Shown: one piece after another, positions 5,033-64,000 of the stretch
Position numbering within the stretch: position 1 is the first letter of the stretch
Layout: each line of letters opens with the position of its first letter
Source: an uncultured Pseudomonadales bacterium
GTDB taxonomy: Bacteria > Patescibacteriota > Microgenomatia > UBA1400 > MFAQ01
Direction: 5' to 3'
DNA length: 64,000 nucleotides
Assembly (NCBI GenBank): GCA_964439805.1
Contig: CAYTOI010000003.1
Span: forward strand, 36,844-100,843
Program-made: the position numbers and the translations under genes
The notes under the pieces: generated by a model
Seen by the model: the letters and a program-made list of their open reading frames with translations, nothing else
The model's database searches: none
Told to the model about the DNA's origin: nothing

Positions 5033-5557
5033 TTAAGCCAAGTTGCTCCAGACATCCACCACATCATCCATGTCCAAAAGCAACTGAAATAGTTTTTCTA
5101 ACTGTTTTTTATCTTCGTCAGGTAAAGAAATAGTTGGTAATGGACTAATAGATTTCATATAAGAAACAGAGCCAGGTCCACCTAACTTAGCTGAATTTTT
5201 TTCGAGAACATTTTTTACTTCGCCTCCAGTGCGATTACGATTATCAGTAATAACAGTTACCAAAATTCCTACGCCACCCAAACCATACGCTTCATAGACA
5301 ATTTCTTCCGCCACGTCTCCCTCATTATTTCCCAAAGCTTTATCAATTGCTCTTTTAATGTTTTCCATCGGCATATTTACAGATCTAGCGTCTTCTACAC
5401 AAGCTCTCAAAAATGGATTGGCGTTAACATCGCCAGAACCACCATTTTGGACGGCTATACGGATCTTTTTTGCTATTTTTGTAAATACAGCGCTACGTTT
5501 GCTGTCTTCTATAGCTTTTTGGTGTTTTATGGTAGACCATTTTGAGTGCCCTGACAT
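5033..5557 (-). CDS. yebC: YebC/PmpR-family transcriptional regulator (short form)
   Basis: N-terminus MSGHSKWSTIKHQK and TDNRNRT motif; 174 aa, shorter than the canonical ~240 aa. Confidence 0.85.
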   Translation of the reverse strand: MSGHSKWSTIKHQKAIEDSKRSAVFTKIAKKIRIAVQNGGSGDVNANPFLRACVEDARSVNMPMENIKRAIDKALGNNEGDVAEEIVYEAYGLGGVGILVTVITDNRNRTGGEVKNVLEKNSAKLGGPGSVSYMKSISPLPTISLPDEDKKQLEKLFQLLLDMDDVVDVWSNLA

Positions 5558-5610
5558 GTTTCAAGTATATCATTGACATCTTTATCACAAAATTATATAT
5601 TCACTGCAGC

Positions 5611-11323: not shown

Positions 11324-12574
11324 CTAATTCAAATCAATCTTTGTGTCGCAACTCTCACCAACTTTCTCAACATCAACAACATCCACCAGATTCTTACTTT
11401 GGTTTATAGAAACTTTATAACACAATTTAGAATCTGGATTAAAAGGAACCTTCTCTATGTATTTTGGTTCCAAATCTTTCAAATCACCTGGCAATTTATT
11501 TGTCTCAGTAAAATACAAAACTACAGCATTCTGAATCTGTAGTACATTGTTTTTATTCTGAGCATCTCTTGCTTTTTTTATTTGTTTGGCAGGATCAATT
11601 GCCACAAAAATTGCAAAAACTGGTATTACAAGAATACTGAGCAATCCAATCACAGCCATCACCACATAGCCAGTTTTACTCTTCTCAGAAACATCAACTT
11701 TTCCACCCTTAACAGACTTAATATTCTTAAACATGGTAACCAAAAACACTTGTGAATATAGCATTGCCAAATAACCACCAATACTTTGTAAAAACATTAA
11801 AAATTTATTTGTTTCCAAACCTAAAAACATCAAAACAACTTTAATAATTAAAAATACTGAACCTACAAAAACTCCAAATAACAAAAATCTTAAAAAAATT
11901 GACCAGCCAAATCCCCTAACATATTCCCTACTAGCCTGCATAGCTTTAATTCCTCTCAAGTCATCTGAAAGTAGAACAAGTATTGAAAATATAAGTGTCC
12001 CACCCAAAATAATTCCAGGAATTATAAATAACAACAAACCACCAGTGGTGACAAACATTATCAACATAGTAACCCAGAAATACCCAGCAGCAAACTTCCA
12101 GCTTCGCTTGTATGAGTCTATTGCCCCAATATCATCATTCGAAATCAAATTAATTAGAAGAGCAATACTTCCCAAATATTGAGTAATAAAGCCAAAAACA
12201 ACAATTAAAATATAAAATATTACAGTTCCAATGAAAACAAACGTGTTGTAGGGGGCGTTCTTTAAAGCCAAGTTAGACACTGTCGCAGTCAAAATCCCCG
12301 CCAAAACAGCTAATGTGCTTAACAAAAAGTAAGGCAAAACAGATATAAAAAATATGCTCTTAAATTTTCGAACAAATAGAAAATATGCTTCACAAAACAA
12401 GTCAACTATACCCAAATACTCTTCCTTTTCTTTTGGACTAATTGTTTTACCAAGTGCCTCATCCAAATCAGCCTCTGACCATTTATTTAAAACTAACTCC
12501 TTTCGAATATCCTCATCCGGAACTCCTACCAACCTTTTGGTTTTGACATATTCCTGCAGGCTGGGTGTTATCAT
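11324..12574 (-). CDS. polytopic membrane protein with C-terminal extracytoplasmic domain
   Basis: Start moved to Met59 of the track ORF (12574) because the longer ORF reads antisense through the tRNA-Leu. 6-8 TM segments. Confidence 0.45.
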   Translation of the reverse strand: MITPSLQEYVKTKRLVGVPDEDIRKELVLNKWSEADLDEALGKTISPKEKEEYLGIVDLFCEAYFLFVRKFKSIFFISVLPYFLLSTLAVLAGILTATVSNLALKNAPYNTFVFIGTVIFYILIVVFGFITQYLGSIALLINLISNDDIGAIDSYKRSWKFAAGYFWVTMLIMFVTTGGLLLFIIPGIILGGTLIFSILVLLSDDLRGIKAMQASREYVRGFGWSIFLRFLLFGVFVGSVFLIIKVVLMFLGLETNKFLMFLQSIGGYLAMLYSQVFLVTMFKNIKSVKGGKVDVSEKSKTGYVVMAVIGLLSILVIPVFAIFVAIDPAKQIKKARDAQNKNNVLQIQNAVVLYFTETNKLPGDLKDLEPKYIEKVPFNPDSKLCYKVSINQSKNLVDVVDVEKVGESCDTKIDLN

Positions 12575-12649
12575 AAATTTAGTATAACTCCCAATATATT
12601 CAGGAATCCAGTGAATTAGTGCCCAATTTAAGGTAAAATAACAACTATT

Positions 12650-12735
12650 GCCGAGATGGCGGAATGGTATACGCTCAAGTCTCAAAAACTTGTGGTCGCA
12701 AGGCCGTGAGGGTTCGATCCCCTCTCTCGGCACCA
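12650..12735 (+). tRNA. tRNA-Leu (anticodon CAA), class II with long variable arm, CCA encoded
   Basis: Acceptor GCCGAGA/TCTCGGC, anticodon loop CTCAAAA, T-arm GAGGG-TTCGATC-CCCTC, discriminator A plus CCA. Confidence 0.85.
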
Positions 12736-12742
12736 AGAAAAT

Positions 12743-12770
12743 GTTCACCCTTGTGGTGAATATTTTTTTG
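12743..12770 (+). terminator. rho-independent terminator after tRNA-Leu
   Basis: ttcacc-cttg-tggtgaa followed by TATTTTTTT. Confidence 0.55.
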
Positions 12771-58021: not shown

Positions 58022-58612
58022 CTACCACCTATTGCAAATCACCTCCAAAACTCTCTCATGAACCTGTTCTGGCGTGCCTTCGGCCTCAACGACCTCCCAC
58101 CCAAACTCCCTTGCCAGTTCTCTGTGGATTTCCCTATTTCTCTCCCACGTTCCCTCAGCAGACGACTCAAACCTGTGCCCAGACTCAATCCCGCTGCTAA
58201 ACCTTTCCCCATCCAGCAGTATCGAGACATCTGGCACCAAGAGGTCAGAGTTTATCTCATATAAATAAGACCTTGAAACCCCCTTAGTAAGCCCCCAAGC
58301 TATCCCTGTGCCCAAATAGTCTTCGGCAAAAACGTCACCATCCTTGAGCATCTCCAGGAGGCAAGGCTCATATTCACGCCTGTCTTGTGCGTAGACCGTT
58401 TGCAGTTCGAGCTCGCTTAGGATTCTCTCTTCTGGCGCTCCCCGCAGCTCCCTATTGATAATTATTCCAGTAGGAGTGTCATACCTAGGATACTTAATGC
58501 GAAAATACGGCCTTTCTAGCTCTCTCCAGGTTTCTTCCAACAAGTCTAGCTGCTTGGATTTACCCAAATTATTTGCCGCATAAACAACAACAAACTTACC
58601 TCTGCTGGACAT
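58022..58612 (-). CDS. thymidylate-kinase-like P-loop kinase (divergent Walker A)
   Basis: KFVVVYAANNLGKSKQ resembles the Tmk P-loop; EDYLGTGIAWG resembles the DRY/LID region; PDVSILLDGE resembles Tmk PDLTLYLDV. Locally higher GC. Confidence 0.45.
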   Translation of the reverse strand: MSSRGKFVVVYAANNLGKSKQLDLLEETWRELERPYFRIKYPRYDTPTGIIINRELRGAPEERILSELELQTVYAQDRREYEPCLLEMLKDGDVFAEDYLGTGIAWGLTKGVSRSYLYEINSDLLVPDVSILLDGERFSSGIESGHRFESSAEGTWERNREIHRELAREFGWEVVEAEGTPEQVHERVLEVICNRW

Positions 58613-58814: not shown

Positions 58815-58840
58815 TGAGTTTTTGATTTTTTGAGTTTTTT
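58815..58840. repeat. repeat family A copy
   Basis: gagtttttgatttttgagtttttt, directly 3' of the Nramp gene. Confidence 0.6.
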
Positions 58841-60150
58841 CACTTCCCCCAATTCCAAAACATCAAAAGCACCGACAGTGCCATAAACACAAAAGTAATC
58901 CAAGCAATTACCAAATATTTTTTCTCAGTTTTAAACTTCCCCACCACGTCTTCCCTACCAGCAAGCTTAATGATTATAAAAATAAGCGGCACAGCCACTA
59001 CACCATTTACCACAGCCGCATAATACAATGCCTGCATAGTATTAATTCCAAACAAATTCATAAAAACGCCTACCATAGTAGCCACTGCCAAAATCAAATA
59101 AAATCCCTTTGCGGAACTAAACTTTTTATTCAACCCCTCCTTAATACCCAGCGCTTCTGAAACTGCATAAGCTACCGACCCAGCCAACACTGGAACAGAC
59201 TGCAAGCCTATACCAATAATTCCAAAAGCAAACAATAGATAGGCAAATTCTCCAGCAAGAGGTCTGAGGGCGAGAGCTGCTTGCTCCGCACTTTGTATTT
59301 CAAAAATTCCATTTGCATGCAAAGTCCCTGCAGTAGTAACCACAATAAAAAAAGTCATCAAGTTGGAAAACAACATTCCCACCTTCGTATCCAACCTCAT
59401 CTTTTTAATTTCACTCATATTTACCACCGGCTTTTGTCCGAAATCCGATATCTGATATCTGACATCTGAGATCTCTTCCTCCACTTCTTGTGAAGCTTGC
59501 CAAAAAAATAAATATGGCGAAATTGTCGTCCCCAAAAATCCCACTAAAGTCATAATGTAGTCTGTACTCCAATCAATTCTGGGAACCAGAGTCACTTTCA
59601 AAATCTCTAGCCAGTCAGGGTGAATCATAAAAGCCGTAATCACATAAACTACTAACGAAAGACCAAGCCACTTCAGCACTTCAGAATATTTTTTGTACGG
59701 TACCCAAATCTCCAAAACCACCACAAACATGGCAACCAGAAATAGCCAAAAGATAAAGTTCAGCCCAAAAACCATTTGCAATGACGAAGCCATAATCCCC
59801 AGATCAGCTCCAATATTTACAATATTTGCAAATGCGAGAAGTGATACAGCAAACCACATTACTCTTTTGGAACTAAACTTTTTAAGAATTCCAGCTAAAC
59901 CTCTCCCTGTAGTCATCCCTACTCTGCCACACATCTCTTGAATAGATATCATGGCTGGCAGCAAAAACAGAGCAAGCCATGTCATCCCAAAACCAAACTT
60001 TGCCCCAGCAATAGAATAAGTAGCTATTCCGCTCGGATCATCATCTGCCGCGCCGGTGACAAAACCTGGACCAACTCTTTTTACAAACTTTTTAAAAAAT
60101 ACCGGAAACTTCATTAATCTAATAATACACAAAAAAGACCCTATCACCAA
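58840..60150 (-). CDS. mntH: Nramp-family divalent metal cation transporter (MntH-like)
   Basis: GPGFVTGAADDDPSGIATYSIAGAKFGFGMTWLALFLLPAMISIQEMCGRVGMTTGRGLAG matches the Nramp N-terminal consensus; 11 TM segments. In-frame family-B repeat. Confidence 0.85.
   Translation of the reverse strand: MVIGSFLCIIRLMKFPVFFKKFVKRVGPGFVTGAADDDPSGIATYSIAGAKFGFGMTWLALFLLPAMISIQEMCGRVGMTTGRGLAGILKKFSSKRVMWFAVSLLAFANIVNIGADLGIMASSLQMVFGLNFIFWLFLVAMFVVVLEIWVPYKKYSEVLKWLGLSLVVYVITAFMIHPDWLEILKVTLVPRIDWSTDYIMTLVGFLGTTISPYLFFWQASQEVEEEISDVRYQISDFGQKPVVNMSEIKKMRLDTKVGMLFSNLMTFFIVVTTAGTLHANGIFEIQSAEQAALALRPLAGEFAYLLFAFGIIGIGLQSVPVLAGSVAYAVSEALGIKEGLNKKFSSAKGFYLILAVATMVGVFMNLFGINTMQALYYAAVVNGVVAVPLIFIIIKLAGREDVVGKFKTEKKYLVIAWITFVFMALSVLLMFWNWGK
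59445..59475. repeat. repeat family B copy, in frame inside the Nramp gene
   Basis: ccgatatctgatatctgacatctgagatctc. Confidence 0.65.
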
Positions 60151-60176
60151 AAGGCAATAGGGTCACTCGTAAATTA

Positions 60177-60710
60177 CTATCCTTCCCAATTTGAAACCTG
60201 AAAACCAATAGCTCCCATATCACTCTTGTCAACTTCAAGTTTATGGTCTACATAAGTTACATAGTTTGCAGACTTTGCTCTTACCATGGTGCCATTCACA
60301 CCATCATCAATAAAAGATACAAGTACCATTAGATTTCTGTCTTGCACCTTTCCGATCCAGTCCAAAGCATTACTCTTCGATATTTCAGGTGTACTGATTC
60401 TTTCCCAACAGTGATCCGGACCAGCAACCAGCACCACCCATCGAAGCTCGTCTTTGATTTTTTTGGATGAATATTCCTTTTCCATAAGATCTTGAAAGAA
60501 TTTTGCCGATGACTGAAACAAAAATGAGACATCCAAAGTTTTATCTGCCAGCACTTTTACAATTGCCACATTTACCTTTTTGTAACGAATTGCAAAATAC
60601 TCTCCATTGTTACAAGAAACAACTTCGTAGCTCTTTCTGAGGTTTTTGGGGATAGACAGGGATACTAACTCAAAGTCTGTAATCTCAACAGCATCACGAG
60701 CAATTTTCAT
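60177..60710 (-). CDS. hypothetical protein (177 aa), paralog of 61031..61585
   Basis: Shared LFQ...EL.W..L...S...AL..IG pattern with 61031..61585. Confidence 0.4.
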   Translation of the reverse strand: MKIARDAVEITDFELVSLSIPKNLRKSYEVVSCNNGEYFAIRYKKVNVAIVKVLADKTLDVSFLFQSSAKFFQDLMEKEYSSKKIKDELRWVVLVAGPDHCWERISTPEISKSNALDWIGKVQDRNLMVLVSFIDDGVNGTMVRAKSANYVTYVDHKLEVDKSDMGAIGFQVSNWEG

Positions 60711-60759
60711 ACATCCTCCAGTTAAGTTAATGTAAGTTCTGCGAGAATTATATCAGCAC

Positions 60760-60788
60760 AAAAAAAGACGAGCCCGAAAGCCCGTCTC
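60760..60788 (-). terminator. terminator (copy 1 of repeated gacgagccc...gcccgtct hairpin)
   Basis: On the - strand: agacgggctttcgggctcgtc followed by TTTTTTT. Confidence 0.55.
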
Positions 60789-60794
60789 GACAAC

Positions 60795-61028
60795 CTAGTT
60801 TCTATTCTTTTCAAAAATCTCCTGAAACTTAACAGATTCTTGCAACTCAGGAAAATACCAAAAATCAAACATTGATCCGTTTAGCTTAAACTTAGCAACT
60901 ACCGTTTTTGGGTCAGACTCCAATATTACTTTACAATCTCCATCGACATCATCAGGAGTTTGAATTCTGTAACCTTCAGGCAGAGCCAAACGGATAAAAT
61001 ACAAAAAATGAAATGAGGATGAGGCCAC
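60795..61028 (-). CDS. hypothetical small protein (77 aa), paralog of 61673..61948
   Basis: Shares P(E/K)(G/N)YRI(Q/R) motif with 61673..61948. Confidence 0.35.
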   Translation of the reverse strand: MASSSFHFLYFIRLALPEGYRIQTPDDVDGDCKVILESDPKTVVAKFKLNGSMFDFWYFPELQESVKFQEIFEKNRN

Positions 61029-61030
61029 GT

Positions 61031-61585
61031 CTACCCCGATTCCAAAGTGGTGAATTCAATCATTGCTGGCCCCAGATCAGTCAAGCCAAGCAATGGATCT
61101 TCCACCGTTCCAAGCAGTTGAAAACTGTGGACATATTCCAAACCATTGATCATTTCGTCCCACTTATTAGAATAAAAGCCAATCAGCATGGCGCCTTGTT
61201 TCATAACCGATGGCCCAATATTAGCCAAAGCTTCATCTTTGCTTGTCGCTGGGGCACCCATATATCCCCACTTTCTCTCATAGGAGGGGAAGACCAGAAG
61301 CCAATTTAGCTCCTTGGTGGGGAAAAAGCGCTCGCTAAGCAACTTTTCGAAACGATCACCTTTAGAGCCTGCGGTAATCTGGAACAAAAAGCCTGTAGTT
61401 TCGGCAGAGACGACAGCAATTTGAGATGATCCACATAAAACTACAAACTTATCAGCTTCACCTTCTGCAGTTTCAAGCTGATCAAACGTATACCCATCGG
61501 GCAAGGTTCGATCCAGTCTTAATGCAGTCGAATCCGGAACCAAATTATATGGAACAATCATGATTAACTCCTTGTTATAGTGCAA
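61031..61585 (-). CDS. hypothetical protein (184 aa)
   Basis: Paralog of 60177..60710. Confidence 0.4.
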   Translation of the reverse strand: MHYNKELIMIVPYNLVPDSTALRLDRTLPDGYTFDQLETAEGEADKFVVLCGSSQIAVVSAETTGFLFQITAGSKGDRFEKLLSERFFPTKELNWLLVFPSYERKWGYMGAPATSKDEALANIGPSVMKQGAMLIGFYSNKWDEMINGLEYVHSFQLLGTVEDPLLGLTDLGPAMIEFTTLESG

Positions 61586-61638
61586 AAATGTGTACTCATA
61601 TATTATAAGCCTAATACCAGTTTATGTCAAATACGCAC

Positions 61639-61666
61639 AAAAAAGACGAGCCCAAAGGCCCGTCTT
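61639..61666 (-). terminator. terminator (copy 2, about 25 nt identical to copy 1)
   Basis: aaaaagacgagcccaaaggcccgtctta. Confidence 0.55.
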
Positions 61667-61672
61667 AGCATC

Positions 61673-61948
61673 CTATTTTTCTTCAATAAACAAGCACTCA
61701 ACCTCATCAGTACTATTGTGCTTTTCAAAGGCAGCAATAAAAGCCCGCTTGATACTCTCGGTAGGTGTGTATGCATAAACCGATAAAGTTTTTCCTGCTG
61801 TAATTTGGCAACTTCCAACCATACGCTTGTTAACATCATAAATTCCAAACCCAACACCCGGAGCAATACGGATCCTGTAATTTTTCGGAATTACCTTTAA
61901 AATGCTTTCCTTTGAATCACTTTCTACCTGCACTTTTACGATTTTCAT
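61673..61948 (-). CDS. hypothetical small protein (91 aa)
   Basis: ORF; paralog of 60795..61028. Confidence 0.35.
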   Translation of the reverse strand: MKIVKVQVESDSKESILKVIPKNYRIRIAPGVGFGIYDVNKRMVGSCQITAGKTLSVYAYTPTESIKRAFIAAFEKHNSTDEVECLFIEEK

Positions 61949-61961
61949 TCAACCTCCAAAA

Positions 61962-62231
61962 CTACTGAAATTTTTCAGAATGTTTATCTTTAACTAAACC
62001 GCAAATTGCCCTGCCATAGTCGTCTTTTGTAAAAACAACCACTGCTTTCTTTTCATCTTCAAAAGATACAGTTGCCAAAAGACCTAATCCCCAATAAACC
62101 TTATATTCATCATCACATTTTTCTATACGAAAAAGGAACATCAGGTCTTTAAAAATTTCCTTAACAAAATCTTCATTGTCGCCAGCAAAATTTAAAAAAT
62201 CAGATTTGTAGAAAAATAGAGTCACGGCCAC
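61962..62231 (-). CDS. hypothetical small protein (89 aa)
   Basis: ORF only. Confidence 0.3.
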   Translation of the reverse strand: MAVTLFFYKSDFLNFAGDNEDFVKEIFKDLMFLFRIEKCDDEYKVYWGLGLLATVSFEDEKKAVVVFTKDDYGRAICGLVKDKHSEKFQ

Positions 62232-62265: not shown

Positions 62266-64000
62266 TTATTTTACCACATCAACTTCACTGTCAGTCTTTG
62301 GTTCTGGCTTCTTCCAGCTTGCCCAGGTACAGTTTGGATAATCTTCACAGCCATAAAAGTCCCTATTTTTACTCGTTTTCTTCTGGACCACTCTCTTTCC
62401 ACACTTCTCGCAGACCACGTCTGGAATATAAATTATGTAAGGCGCTTTGTACTTACATTCAGGATATCTATTGCAGCTTAAGAACTTCCCAAACTTCCCG
62501 TCTCTGATTACAATATTCCCCTCTTTGCACTCTGGACATTTCTCCCCTGTCTCTTCTGTTGGCACCCCTACCCTAGCCGAGTCCTTGTCCACCTTTACAA
62601 TTTGCTCACTAAATAGTCCCCAAAAATTTGAGAGCATCTTCTCCCAGTTAAGTTTTCCGGCTGCAATTTCGTCTAGCTCTGTTTCCATCTTGGCCGTAAA
62701 CTCGTATTCCATTTCTTTAGCAAAGTTCTCCACCAAAAAGTCGACAACTGCTTTACCAATTGATGTGGGGTAGAATCTTTTCTCTTTTTGCTCTACGTAT
62801 CGCCTGTCAATAATCGTGGAAATAATTGCCGCGTAAGTACTAGGTCTTCCTATTCCCCTCTTTTCTAGCTCTTTGATTATCGAAGCGTCATTAAACCTTG
62901 CTGGTGGCTGAGTAAATTTCTGCTCACCCTTTACTTCTTTTTTCTCCAAGGTCTCTTCTGGAGCCACTTCTGGCAAAGTTTGAGAATCTTCTTCACCATT
63001 TTCGGACTTTACTTTGTCTTTGGGAAATAGTTTCTTCCAACCATCAAATACTGTTACCACTCCATTTGCAGTTAACAAGTATTTCCCAGAAACCACCTCT
63101 ACTCTTGTGTCGTCAAATATTGCTTCTGCCATCTGACAGGCCACAGTTCTTCGCCAAATTAAAGAATAAAGTTTTTTCTGATCGGGGTCGGACTCTCCCG
63201 TAAAGTTTTCTGGAGTCACAGTCAAATTTGTCGGACGTACCGCTTCGTGAGCTTCTTGAGCTACTACTTTACCTGCAGTTTTATAAAGCTTAGGAGCAGT
63301 AGGTAAATACTTTTCCCCATAGTTTAATTTAATAAAGTCTCGGACAGCTTCAATGGCCACAGGTGCCAAATTAAAAGAGTCAGTACGGTGATAGGTAATA
63401 TCTCCCTGTTCGTAAAGCCTCTGAGCCACATTCATAGTTCTCTTTGCTGACCAGCCCAAAGTGTTTGCTGCAGCTTGCTGCAAAGTAGAAGTTTTAAATG
63501 GTGCGTAAGGATTTGCTTTTCTCTTTGTCTTTTTTACATCAGCTACTTTATAAGTTCCACTTTCCAAGTCCCTAAGAACTTGTTTTGCCAATTCCGAATT
63601 ATTTACTTCCTGTTTCTTGTCACTAATCTTTGCGAGCTCCACCCAAAAGTTTTCTTGAGTTCTAGAGTTCTTGAGTTCTTGAGTTCTTAATAGTACCCTA
63701 ATCTGCCAATACTCCTGTGGCTTATGTGCTTCTATTTCTCTCTCTTTTTCTACAATCAATCTCACAGCAACACTCTGCACTCTACCAGCCGAAAGCCCTC
63801 TTCGCACTTTCTTCCACAAAATTGGAGAAAGTTTGTAGCCCACCAAACGATCCAAAAATCGCCTCGCCTGTTGCGAGTTAACAAGATCCATATCTATCTC
63901 CCTAGGGTTATCCAAAGCCTCCAAAATTGCATCTTTGGTAATAGAATGAAAAGCAATTCTCTTAAAAACCTTATCTTTTTTCTTTTTACTTTCACTGTCT
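62266..64000 (-). CDS. topA: DNA topoisomerase I (partial; N-terminus lies beyond the window end)
   Basis: Topo IA core (RFLDRLVGYKLSPILW, GRVQSVAVRLIVERE), catalytic-Tyr region ITYHRTDS, three C-terminal C4 zinc ribbons. In-frame family-A repeat. Confidence 0.9.
   Translation of the reverse strand, partial: DSESKKKKDKVFKRIAFHSITKDAILEALDNPREIDMDLVNSQQARRFLDRLVGYKLSPILWKKVRRGLSAGRVQSVAVRLIVEKEREIEAHKPQEYWQIRVLLRTQELKNSRTQENFWVELAKISDKKQEVNNSELAKQVLRDLESGTYKVADVKKTKRKANPYAPFKTSTLQQAAANTLGWSAKRTMNVAQRLYEQGDITYHRTDSFNLAPVAIEAVRDFIKLNYGEKYLPTAPKLYKTAGKVVAQEAHEAVRPTNLTVTPENFTGESDPDQKKLYSLIWRRTVACQMAEAIFDDTRVEVVSGKYLLTANGVVTVFDGWKKLFPKDKVKSENGEEDSQTLPEVAPEETLEKKEVKGEQKFTQPPARFNDASIIKELEKRGIGRPSTYAAIISTIIDRRYVEQKEKRFYPTSIGKAVVDFLVENFAKEMEYEFTAKMETELDEIAAGKLNWEKMLSNFWGLFSEQIVKVDKDSARVGVPTEETGEKCPECKEGNIVIRDGKFGKFLSCNRYPECKYKAPYIIYIPDVVCEKCGKRVVQKKTSKNRDFYGCEDYPNCTWASWKKPEPKTDSEVDVVK
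63653..63689. repeat. repeat family A copy, in frame in topA
   Basis: tcttgagttctagagttcttgagttcttgagttctta, encoding RTQELKNSRTQE. Confidence 0.8.

Follow-up and report, generated by a model that had tools for sequence, protein, structure and literature searches.

A variable topA-Nramp island in Collierbacteria-type contigs holds an old, orphan and modular family of small paralogs

The described systems that come closest to the subject of this work, a cluster of five small genes lying on the - strand between topA and an Nramp/MntH-type metal transporter gene, are arrays of small genes and a toxin-antitoxin pair. The cluster is found in a 64 kb stretch of contig CAYTOI010000003.1, called here the window, whose positions serve as coordinates throughout. 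Orphan immunity arrays (SUKH/SMI1-KNR4, Imm, CdiI) are tandem sets of small soluble α+β paralogs without catalytic residues, which diverge fast and vary in copy number and order between strains, and the island resembles them in these traits. Integron cassette arrays are likewise made of short units, each closed by a similar imperfect hairpin, and their content varies between genomes. Lineage-specific orphan expansions in variable islands share with the cluster a restricted range, tandem paralogs, an elevated ratio of nonsynonymous to synonymous substitution (dN/dS) and presence/absence variation at a hot spot. Finally, the TopAI (YjhX)/YjhQ system of E. coli couples a topoisomerase I inhibitor of ~85 amino acids (aa) to a GNAT-like antitoxin of ~180 aa; the gene sizes of the island (~80-90 and ~180 aa) are alike, and the proximity of topA is suggestive.

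The island departs from each of these systems. Compared to immunity arrays, it gives no match in hidden Markov model (HMM) scans, has no toxin or secretion genes nearby, keeps a fixed place between topA and Nramp, appears to have its own promoter and terminator for each unit, and includes derivatives reduced to an N-terminal domain. An N-terminal helix followed by an ‘LPxxY’-type motif superficially recalls the N-terminus of SUKH proteins; the HMM scans found no match to support the likeness. The hairpins are 24-nt GC stems with a U-tract, whereas the attC sites of integrons measure 57-141 nt; moreover, genes A and B of the island appear to be driven by separate promoters, the hairpin pattern is shared by unrelated organisms from metagenomes, and no integrase was found among the called genes and Pfam matches of the loci. 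Relative to other orphan expansions, the peculiarities are a host belonging to the candidate phyla radiation (CPR), a two-domain family that recombines, and a stronger conservation of regulatory DNA than of coding sequence. In contrast to TopAI and YjhQ, the small and large island proteins are homologous to each other, and a terminator and a promoter separate the small from the large gene in each of the pairs that an initial annotation of this DNA had drawn. A TopAI/YjhQ-like toxin-antitoxin system was rejected, as neither YjhX_toxin nor GNAT is matched in Pfam and a structural match to the GNAT protein VipF (probability 0.21) is noise.

We favour the reading of the cluster as part of an old, orphan and modular family of paralogs at a topA-Nramp hot spot, and regard it as reasonably probable. 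Profile comparisons and synteny demonstrate that the paralogs are old, that the family occupies a fixed but variable hot spot seen so far only in Collierbacteria-type contigs, and that the window holds two two-domain genes and three genes for the N-terminal domain (N-domain) only, the evidence for the 89-aa member being weak. From the topA side, the open reading frames (ORFs) are:

61962-62231, - strand: W89, 89 aa from its first GTG, more likely 87 aa from the GTG at 62225
61673-61948, - strand: W91, 91 aa
61031-61561, - strand: gene A, 176 aa, two-domain (first listed as 61031-61585, 184 aa)
60795-61028, - strand: W77, 77 aa
60177-60710, - strand: gene B, 177 aa, two-domain

Thus the five consecutive - strand ORFs of the initial annotation stand by their coordinates, while two of their sizes had to be corrected. 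Gene A most likely starts at ATG 61561 and encodes 176 aa rather than 184: AGGAG lies 6 nt ahead of this codon, and every homologue of gene A begins there. W89 probably starts at GTG 62225, preceded by GGAGG at 5 nt, with a product of 87 aa; the called protein P0040 (P-numbers designate called or homologous proteins) has this length and agrees with this start. W91 begins 13 nt after the stop codon of W89, with GGAGG 4 nt ahead of its ATG, and W77 begins 2 nt past the stop codon of A. The small ORFs are intact and possess Shine-Dalgarno sequences. To note, the W77 protein (P0036) is recorded only from a Logan assembly, whereas its neighbours P0001, P0002 and P0035 are also available from NCBI; W77 thus seems to lack an annotation in the public entry for this contig.

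The paralogy of the two large proteins, claimed from shared residues, was borne out at the profile level. BLASTP alone is marginal (E=6e-4, 23% identity over 104 aa), and hhalign aligns the profiles of A-type and B-type orthologues over 125 columns with a probability of 96.6% (E=5.6e-10); in the family alignment, A and B are 14-17% identical. For the small proteins, the shared P-x-x-Y-R-I motif proposed to unite W91 and W77 is real and corresponds to the ‘LPxGY’ motif of the large proteins, while the direct similarity did not hold: BLASTP is not significant (E=0.54) and hhalign of the 91-like and 77-like profiles is weak (7%). Each small set instead aligns in register with the N-domain (the ~80 N-terminal residues) of the large family, with probabilities of 80% (E=1.4e-5) for the 91-like set and 93.5% (E=2.4e-7) for the 77-like set. 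This homology between the small proteins and the N-domain of the large proteins had escaped the initial annotation. The 89-like pair is suggestive only in the same comparison (24%, E=8e-4).

An HMM of the N-domain, built from the large proteins alone, was scored against the 667 stop-to-stop ORFs that the window contains. The genes of the island take the first five places, with 77.7, 69.2, 13.8, 13.4 and 10.1 bits, followed by 6.5 bits for the next ORF; the small proteins score 13.8-14.2 (W77), 13.4 (W91) and 10.1-10.3 bits (W89, fifth of 667). For each small protein, none of 500 shuffled versions reaches the real score, and an HMM of the C-terminal domain (C-domain), used as a control, yields ~0 bits. 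An internal duplication relating the N-domain to the C-domain was discarded (hhalign probability 0.3%). By these profile matches, W91 and W77 are stand-alone members of the N-domain family, and W89 is a weak candidate for a third. Adjacent genes of the island are hence demonstrably homologous, as expected of tandem paralogs.

A and B are predicted to combine an N-terminal α-β4-α domain of ~75 residues, which harbors the ‘LPxGY’ motif, with a C-terminal domain of ~95 residues; in gene A, the domains span residues ~1-80 and ~85-170. The AlphaFold2 model of A has two domains at a predicted local distance difference test score (pLDDT) of 90.1, and the model of W91 exhibits the same order of a helix, four strands and a helix at a pLDDT of 61. 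The isoelectric points range from acidic to basic (A 4.4, B 6.2, W91 8.9, W77 5.0, W89 4.9), and no transmembrane or hydrophobic segment is predicted in the island proteins. Across 31 members, invariance or near-invariance is confined to W, A, P, L and G residues. The proteins are hence soluble and probably non-catalytic.

The family is rare, and both the family and its predicted fold are uncharacterised; it defines a new domain family. Only ten homologues were retrieved from 5.8 billion clusters, and a search of 1.84 billion gave 25 cluster representatives (E<=1e-3). The latter include two β-propellers, P0026 (2523 aa) and P0033 (1193 aa), in which profile positions 8-60 are matched in 7-12 repeats with E-values down to 8e-12; these YncE/NHL-type propellers were set aside as homologues, the matches probably being summed weak repeat similarity. 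Other sequences illustrate the modularity of the family: P0029 (86 aa) and P0031 (85 aa) are stand-alone N-domains, P0034 is a tandem N-N protein, and P0032 fuses a 91-like N-domain to a C-domain. Pfam, NCBIfam, PHROG, PADLOC and PDB sequence profiles match no member; in Pfam this holds for the five window proteins at E<=1 and for 28 family members at E<=5. PHROGs give only E>=0.038, and the PADLOC-DB defence models a single noise-level hit (HEC-03A, E=0.035, 12 bits). Foldseek searches with the predicted fold return no solved structure, the VipF match having a noise-level probability. Phage and plasmid collections (tblastn) and an IMG/VR scan are devoid of matches. Scans for the locus by patterns drawn from the family alignment had no match in genome, viral or metagenome collections; the family is nevertheless present in GTDB genomes, where it was reached through the neighbouring Nramp gene rather than by pattern scans. 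Nothing relevant was found in the literature on Collierbacteria.

The flanks of the island are conserved:

62266-63924, - strand: topA (topoisomerase I, C-terminal part)
58840-60114, - strand: Nramp/MntH-type metal transporter gene (PF01566, E=1.7e-76)

The topA orthologue carries the Pfam domains Toprim, Topoisom_bac and Zn_ribbon_Top1; L001-L020 denote the related contigs that were compared. The order topA-island-Nramp is found in every contig spanning both flanks, and the distribution of the paralog family is narrow: all members with readable context adjoin topA and/or the Nramp gene, in Collierbacteria-type contigs. Even a member only 27% identical to A is located directly after topA. No family member occurs upstream of Nramp in the more distant Microgenomates L019 and L020 (Nramp <=57% identical). 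The best Nramp matches come from metagenome-assembled genomes (MAGs) titled Candidatus Collierbacteria or Patescibacteria, with one Woesebacteria (L008) and a few ‘uncultured Pseudomonadales’. Three MAGs bearing the last title (L007, L010, L012) have a Collierbacteria-type topA-island-Nramp locus with an Nramp 69-90% identical to that of the window, and their labels look wrong.

Between these flanks, gene content and order change from one genome to the next. Listed from the topA side, with sizes in aa, and by copies alone for L018 and L012, the islands are:

window: 89, 91, A, 77, B (L004 is identical over the part covered, from A onwards)
L002 and L003: 88, 92, A, B
L001: A, B
L006: 210 (unrelated), 97, A, B'
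L005: 93, 106 (77-like), B, 88 (like the N-domain of A, overlapping the end of B), A
L007: 83, B, A-like
L018: three full-length copies
L012: two copies upstream and two downstream of Nramp

A and B occur together in all six closest genomes, and gene order is inverted in L005 and L007. W91 has orthologues in L002, L005, L006 and L007, and W89 has one in L002 (64% identical). W77 is absent from L001, L002 and L006; its homologues are P0037, P0039 and the 106-aa ORF of L005. A large gene followed by a tightly coupled small one is observed twice independently, as A-W77 in the window and as B-88 in L005. The number of family copies per contig goes from none detected (L011) to 4. Copy number, for whose variation the initial annotation advised a check, thus differs between related genomes, as does gene content. 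Other island ORFs of the relatives have no Pfam match. Among them, the 210-aa ORF of L006 (1087-1719), unique and located at the position of W89, is also without PHROG or PADLOC match.

More distant Collierbacteria islands harbor a second family, also conserved, whose proteins measure ~145-207 aa and seem to be β-rich; it adjoins Nramp on the opposite strand: L009 1840-2277(-), L010 7340-7846(-), L011 6775-7230(-) and 7371-7994(-), L012 7494-7928(-), and L014 6272-6703(-) and 7485-7925(-). The window lacks this family, and Pfam has no model that matches it.

The island proteins diverge far faster than their neighbours. Between the window and L006, protein identity reaches 98% for TopA and 96% for Nramp, and falls to 72% for A, 70% for W91 and 29% for B. 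With the Nei-Gojobori method, dN/dS amounts to 0.23-0.38 in the island versus 0.02-0.06 in the flanks (A 0.23-0.27, B 0.33-0.38, W91 0.32, W89 0.31, topA 0.02-0.04, Nramp 0.03-0.06). The synonymous divergence (dS) between the window and L006 is similar in both parts, 0.59-0.64 for the island and 0.70-0.77 for the flanks, and the nonsynonymous divergence of the island is ~10 times that of the flanking genes. Values of dN/dS below 1 indicate purifying selection and real genes: gene-wide and domain-wide estimates lie between 0.10 and 0.56, none above 1, although the sequences are few and saturated. Together with the variable content, these rates agree with the fast-evolving accessory locus of paralogs that had been proposed.

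Divergence is uneven along the two-domain proteins. The C-domain is better conserved than the N-domain in 27 of 28 A-type pairs, as in gene A of the window and L006, where the N-domains are 49% and the C-domains 91% identical. The dN/dS values follow the same trend (N-domain 0.23-0.56, C-domain 0.10-0.26; in gene A, 0.23-0.36 and 0.10-0.18, respectively). The two domains also have discordant relatives. B' of L006 shares 85% identity with B of L002 in the N-domain and 25% in the C-domain, and compared to P0016 the values are 25% and 57%; P0012 and A are 59% identical in the N-domain and 21% in the C-domain. As judged from these identities, N- and C-domain types recombine.

Transcription signals partition the cluster. 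The following elements were located, all on the - strand:

61633-61666, - strand: terminator T1, hairpin AAGACGGGCC-uuug-GGCUCGUCUU then a U-tract, closing the 89-91 unit
61602-61630, - strand: gene A promoter, TTGACA, 17-nt spacer, TATAAT, 12 of 12 consensus positions
60754-60788, - strand: terminator T2, near-identical to T1, closing the A-77 unit
60747-60755, - strand: putative extended -10 element (TGaTATAAT) for gene B, after T2
60128-60164, - strand: terminator T3, different 12-bp stem, closing gene B in front of Nramp

T1 (-17.6 kcal/mol, z=-3.25) and T2 (-14.2 kcal/mol) fold as a 10-bp stem with a 4-nt loop followed by a U-tract; T3 (-22.2 kcal/mol, z=-7.1) lies 13 nt downstream of its stop codon. 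All three combine a GC-rich stem-loop, a U-tract and a location just past a stop codon, the hallmarks of intrinsic terminators. The near-identical terminators reported after both small genes are confirmed: a degenerate 26-nt pattern has 2 matches in the window against 0 expected, and both fold stably; T1 and T2 are 83-93% identical over 27-46 nt. Hairpins orthologous to T1 are present in L002 and L006, as are hairpins orthologous to T2, which directly follow gene A there. The gene A promoter sits between T1 and gene A, and the promoter with its 5' untranslated region (5' UTR; CACATTYGCACTATAACAAGGAG) is common to the window, L002 and L006. The perfect consensus suggests constitutive high expression. 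The element ahead of B was read by eye and was not detected by a two-hexamer promoter scan. Three transcription units thus appear from these signals, [89-91]-T1, promoter-[A-77]-T2 and promoter-[B]-T3, the first being perhaps read through from topA.

The AGACGGGC-loop-GCTCGTC(T)n-GTG hairpin is found after differing island genes, with two copies in the window, two in L002, one in L005 and three in L006, and none elsewhere in the window or in the other scanned contigs among L001-L020. In every copy the stem lies 7-11 nt downstream of the stop codon; the loops vary and the stem sequence is constant, including a G·U pair. The hairpin was considered as a signature of the locus and dropped: the pattern AGACGGGC-N3-6-GGCTCGTCTTTTTT has matches in 88 metagenome contigs outside the clade, from unrelated organisms, and the orphan family is encoded in none of the 88. 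Outside the clade, the pattern thus represents a terminator shape of a generic kind rather than a signature.

The regulatory DNA of the island is conserved. The promoter/5' UTR of A (window 61562-61632 (-), L002 5930-6000, L006 2100-2171) is better conserved than the coding sequence of A and could contain a conserved regulatory element; an Rfam scan at gathering thresholds found nothing there. The spacer between B and Nramp, which contains T3, is 98% identical between the window and L002, whose B genes share only 63% nucleotide identity. The terminator between the last island gene and Nramp (window 60128-60176, L005 ~5526-5581, L006 3336-3388) has the same downstream flank TTTTTTGTGTATTATTAGATTA in all genomes and a stem that differs, GACCCTATTGCC... 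in the window and L002 and the AGACGGGC type in L005 and L006, a difference that has the look of a replaced stem or of gene conversion.

The initial annotation had seen a recently duplicated two-gene module, i.e. a small gene, its terminator and a large gene copied in tandem into two near-identical cassettes. The resemblance of T1 and T2, the paralogy of the large proteins and the motif common to both small ones are indeed what such an event would leave. Conversely, blastn of the two proposed units finds similarity only around the terminator, over 46 nt at 83% identity, which argues against any recent duplication; A and B are too far apart, and other genomes have separate orthologues of each; in L002, L005 and L006, this hairpin is also located behind genes of other types; and W77 is absent from close relatives that keep both A and B. 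The modules [91+184] and [77+177] would, moreover, straddle the terminators, which close the units [89-91], [A-77] and [B] instead. A recent event is thus refuted, and the cassette reading as a whole is hardly credible. An arrival by horizontal transfer or on a mobile element was likewise rejected: the GC content of the island (39.1%) is that of the window (38.7%), and phage and plasmid collections gave no match.

One reading of what the proteins do, advanced from the outset, is an orphan immunity-protein array directed against polymorphic competitor toxins, each paralog facing a different toxin allele. Tandem small, soluble, non-catalytic α+β paralogs with fast divergence, variable presence and order, and domain chimeras would fit such an array, as would the acidity of type A. 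Yet no toxin, Rhs, CdiA or secretion gene was found in the window or in the syntenic loci surveyed by gene calls or BLASTP markers, the neighbours being topA, Nramp, tmk-like and folD, and the search for SMI1/KNR4 (SUKH), CdiI and Imm families in Pfam came back empty for the five window proteins (E<=1) and for 28 members even at E<=5; the sole ‘Imm75’ match is sub-threshold and lies inside an unrelated β-propeller protein. The fixed place between housekeeping genes across the clade, a GC content equal to that of the genome and the conserved consensus promoter of gene A do not favor it either, and an immunity array is considered unlikely. Lineage-specific accessory factors tied to a neighbour, such as proteins that modulate the Nramp transporter or topoisomerase I, would account for the adjacency to topA and/or Nramp in all loci with readable neighbours, which holds down to ~70% Nramp identity and for the member only 27% identical to A, and for the further copies just downstream of Nramp in L012. 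Against such a tie, strong terminators separate the island from Nramp, the island has promoters of its own, and the copy number varies from none detected to 4. TopA and Nramp remain 86-99% conserved while the island proteins fall to 27-72%, a disparity hardly compatible with a stable partnership of housekeeping type, so that this explanation seems very improbable.

It is similarly improbable that the small ORFs (89, 91 and 77 aa) are decaying, non-functional N-terminal remnants of full-length genes. They match the N-domain only, they are gained and lost between relatives, and the NCBI proteins of the source contig do not include W77 (P0036 being known from Logan only), all of which decay would explain. 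They are nonetheless intact and equipped with Shine-Dalgarno sequences, their orthologues are kept in several genomes with a dN/dS of ~0.3, and stand-alone N-domain proteins exist in more distant sequences (P0029, P0031). The independent recurrence of a large gene with a tightly coupled small one (A-W77, and B-88 in L005) also speaks for function.

Returning to the old, modular family, its paralogs arose by tandem duplication, by loss of the C-domain and by recombination, which re-pairs the types of N- and C-domain. The products would be cytoplasmic, non-enzymatic binding proteins, in which the N-domain might act as a rapidly diversifying recognition or dimerisation module; the N-only proteins could pair with the two-domain proteins or compete against them, and a role in an inter-organism or genetic-conflict interaction may be envisaged. 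This proposal of binding proteins whose N-domain takes part in a fast-changing interaction draws on the non-catalytic conservation, the solubility, the hypervariable and free-standing N-domain, the coupled large and small genes, and the co-occurrence of A and B; it is tentative, possible rather than probable. Several points weigh against the reading as a whole. No member matches a characterised family or a solved structure, which leaves the term ‘binding protein’ to stand only on the absence of catalytic-type conservation. Domain-wide dN/dS is below 1, which does not demonstrate positive selection, and relaxed constraint would explain the rates equally well; dS values above 1 are saturated, which makes any inference on the age of alleles soft. 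The link of W89 to the family is weak (24% in hhalign), the model of W91 is of low confidence at its pLDDT of 61, and the taxonomic range is drawn from MAG titles and Nramp similarity rather than from phylogeny.

A bolder and quite unlikely extension is that the topA-Nramp island is a dedicated diversity-generating locus of Collierbacteria, in which a family with a previously unseen two-domain fold is kept polymorphic by recombination. Whole genes and single N- or C-domains would then be swapped between lineages, the conserved terminator and promoter blocks and the domain junction would serve as homology anchors, and the hypervariable N-domain, together with its stand-alone copies, would set specificity toward a host, a phage or a competitor.

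Some features of the surrounding genes were noted in passing. TopA contains, at ~63630-63700 of the window, a variable low-complexity insert of ‘ELKNS(R/K)TQ’-like repeats, with extra copies in L002 (3120-5288) and replacement by unrelated short sequences in L001 and L005. Downstream of Nramp, a gene at 58022-58612 encodes a very divergent thymidylate-kinase-like protein of 196 aa, with no Pfam match at E<=1 and only 22.8 bits against the NCBIfam dTMP kinase model; in L002, the protein encoded at the syntenic position has PF02223, although the window protein has no BLASTP match there (E<=1e-3). The only RNA gene detected in the window is a tRNA-Leu(CAA) at 12650-12735; it lies inside an opposite-strand ORF (11324-12748), the real start of which must therefore be further downstream.

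Lineage-specific, fast-evolving tandem families in variable islands are a known phenomenon, and the new elements here are the protein family and its predicted fold. Even if the function proves mundane, the result corrects the reading of a recent duplication and defines a new domain family. The fixed address makes the locus easy to find in new assemblies, and its fast divergence and domain shuffling make it a candidate marker of strain-level variation. With their tiny genomes, CPR bacteria are believed to rely on other cells, and most of their lineage-specific genes are uncharacterised; in this context, the island is a tractable entry point to what Collierbacteria diversify in response to.

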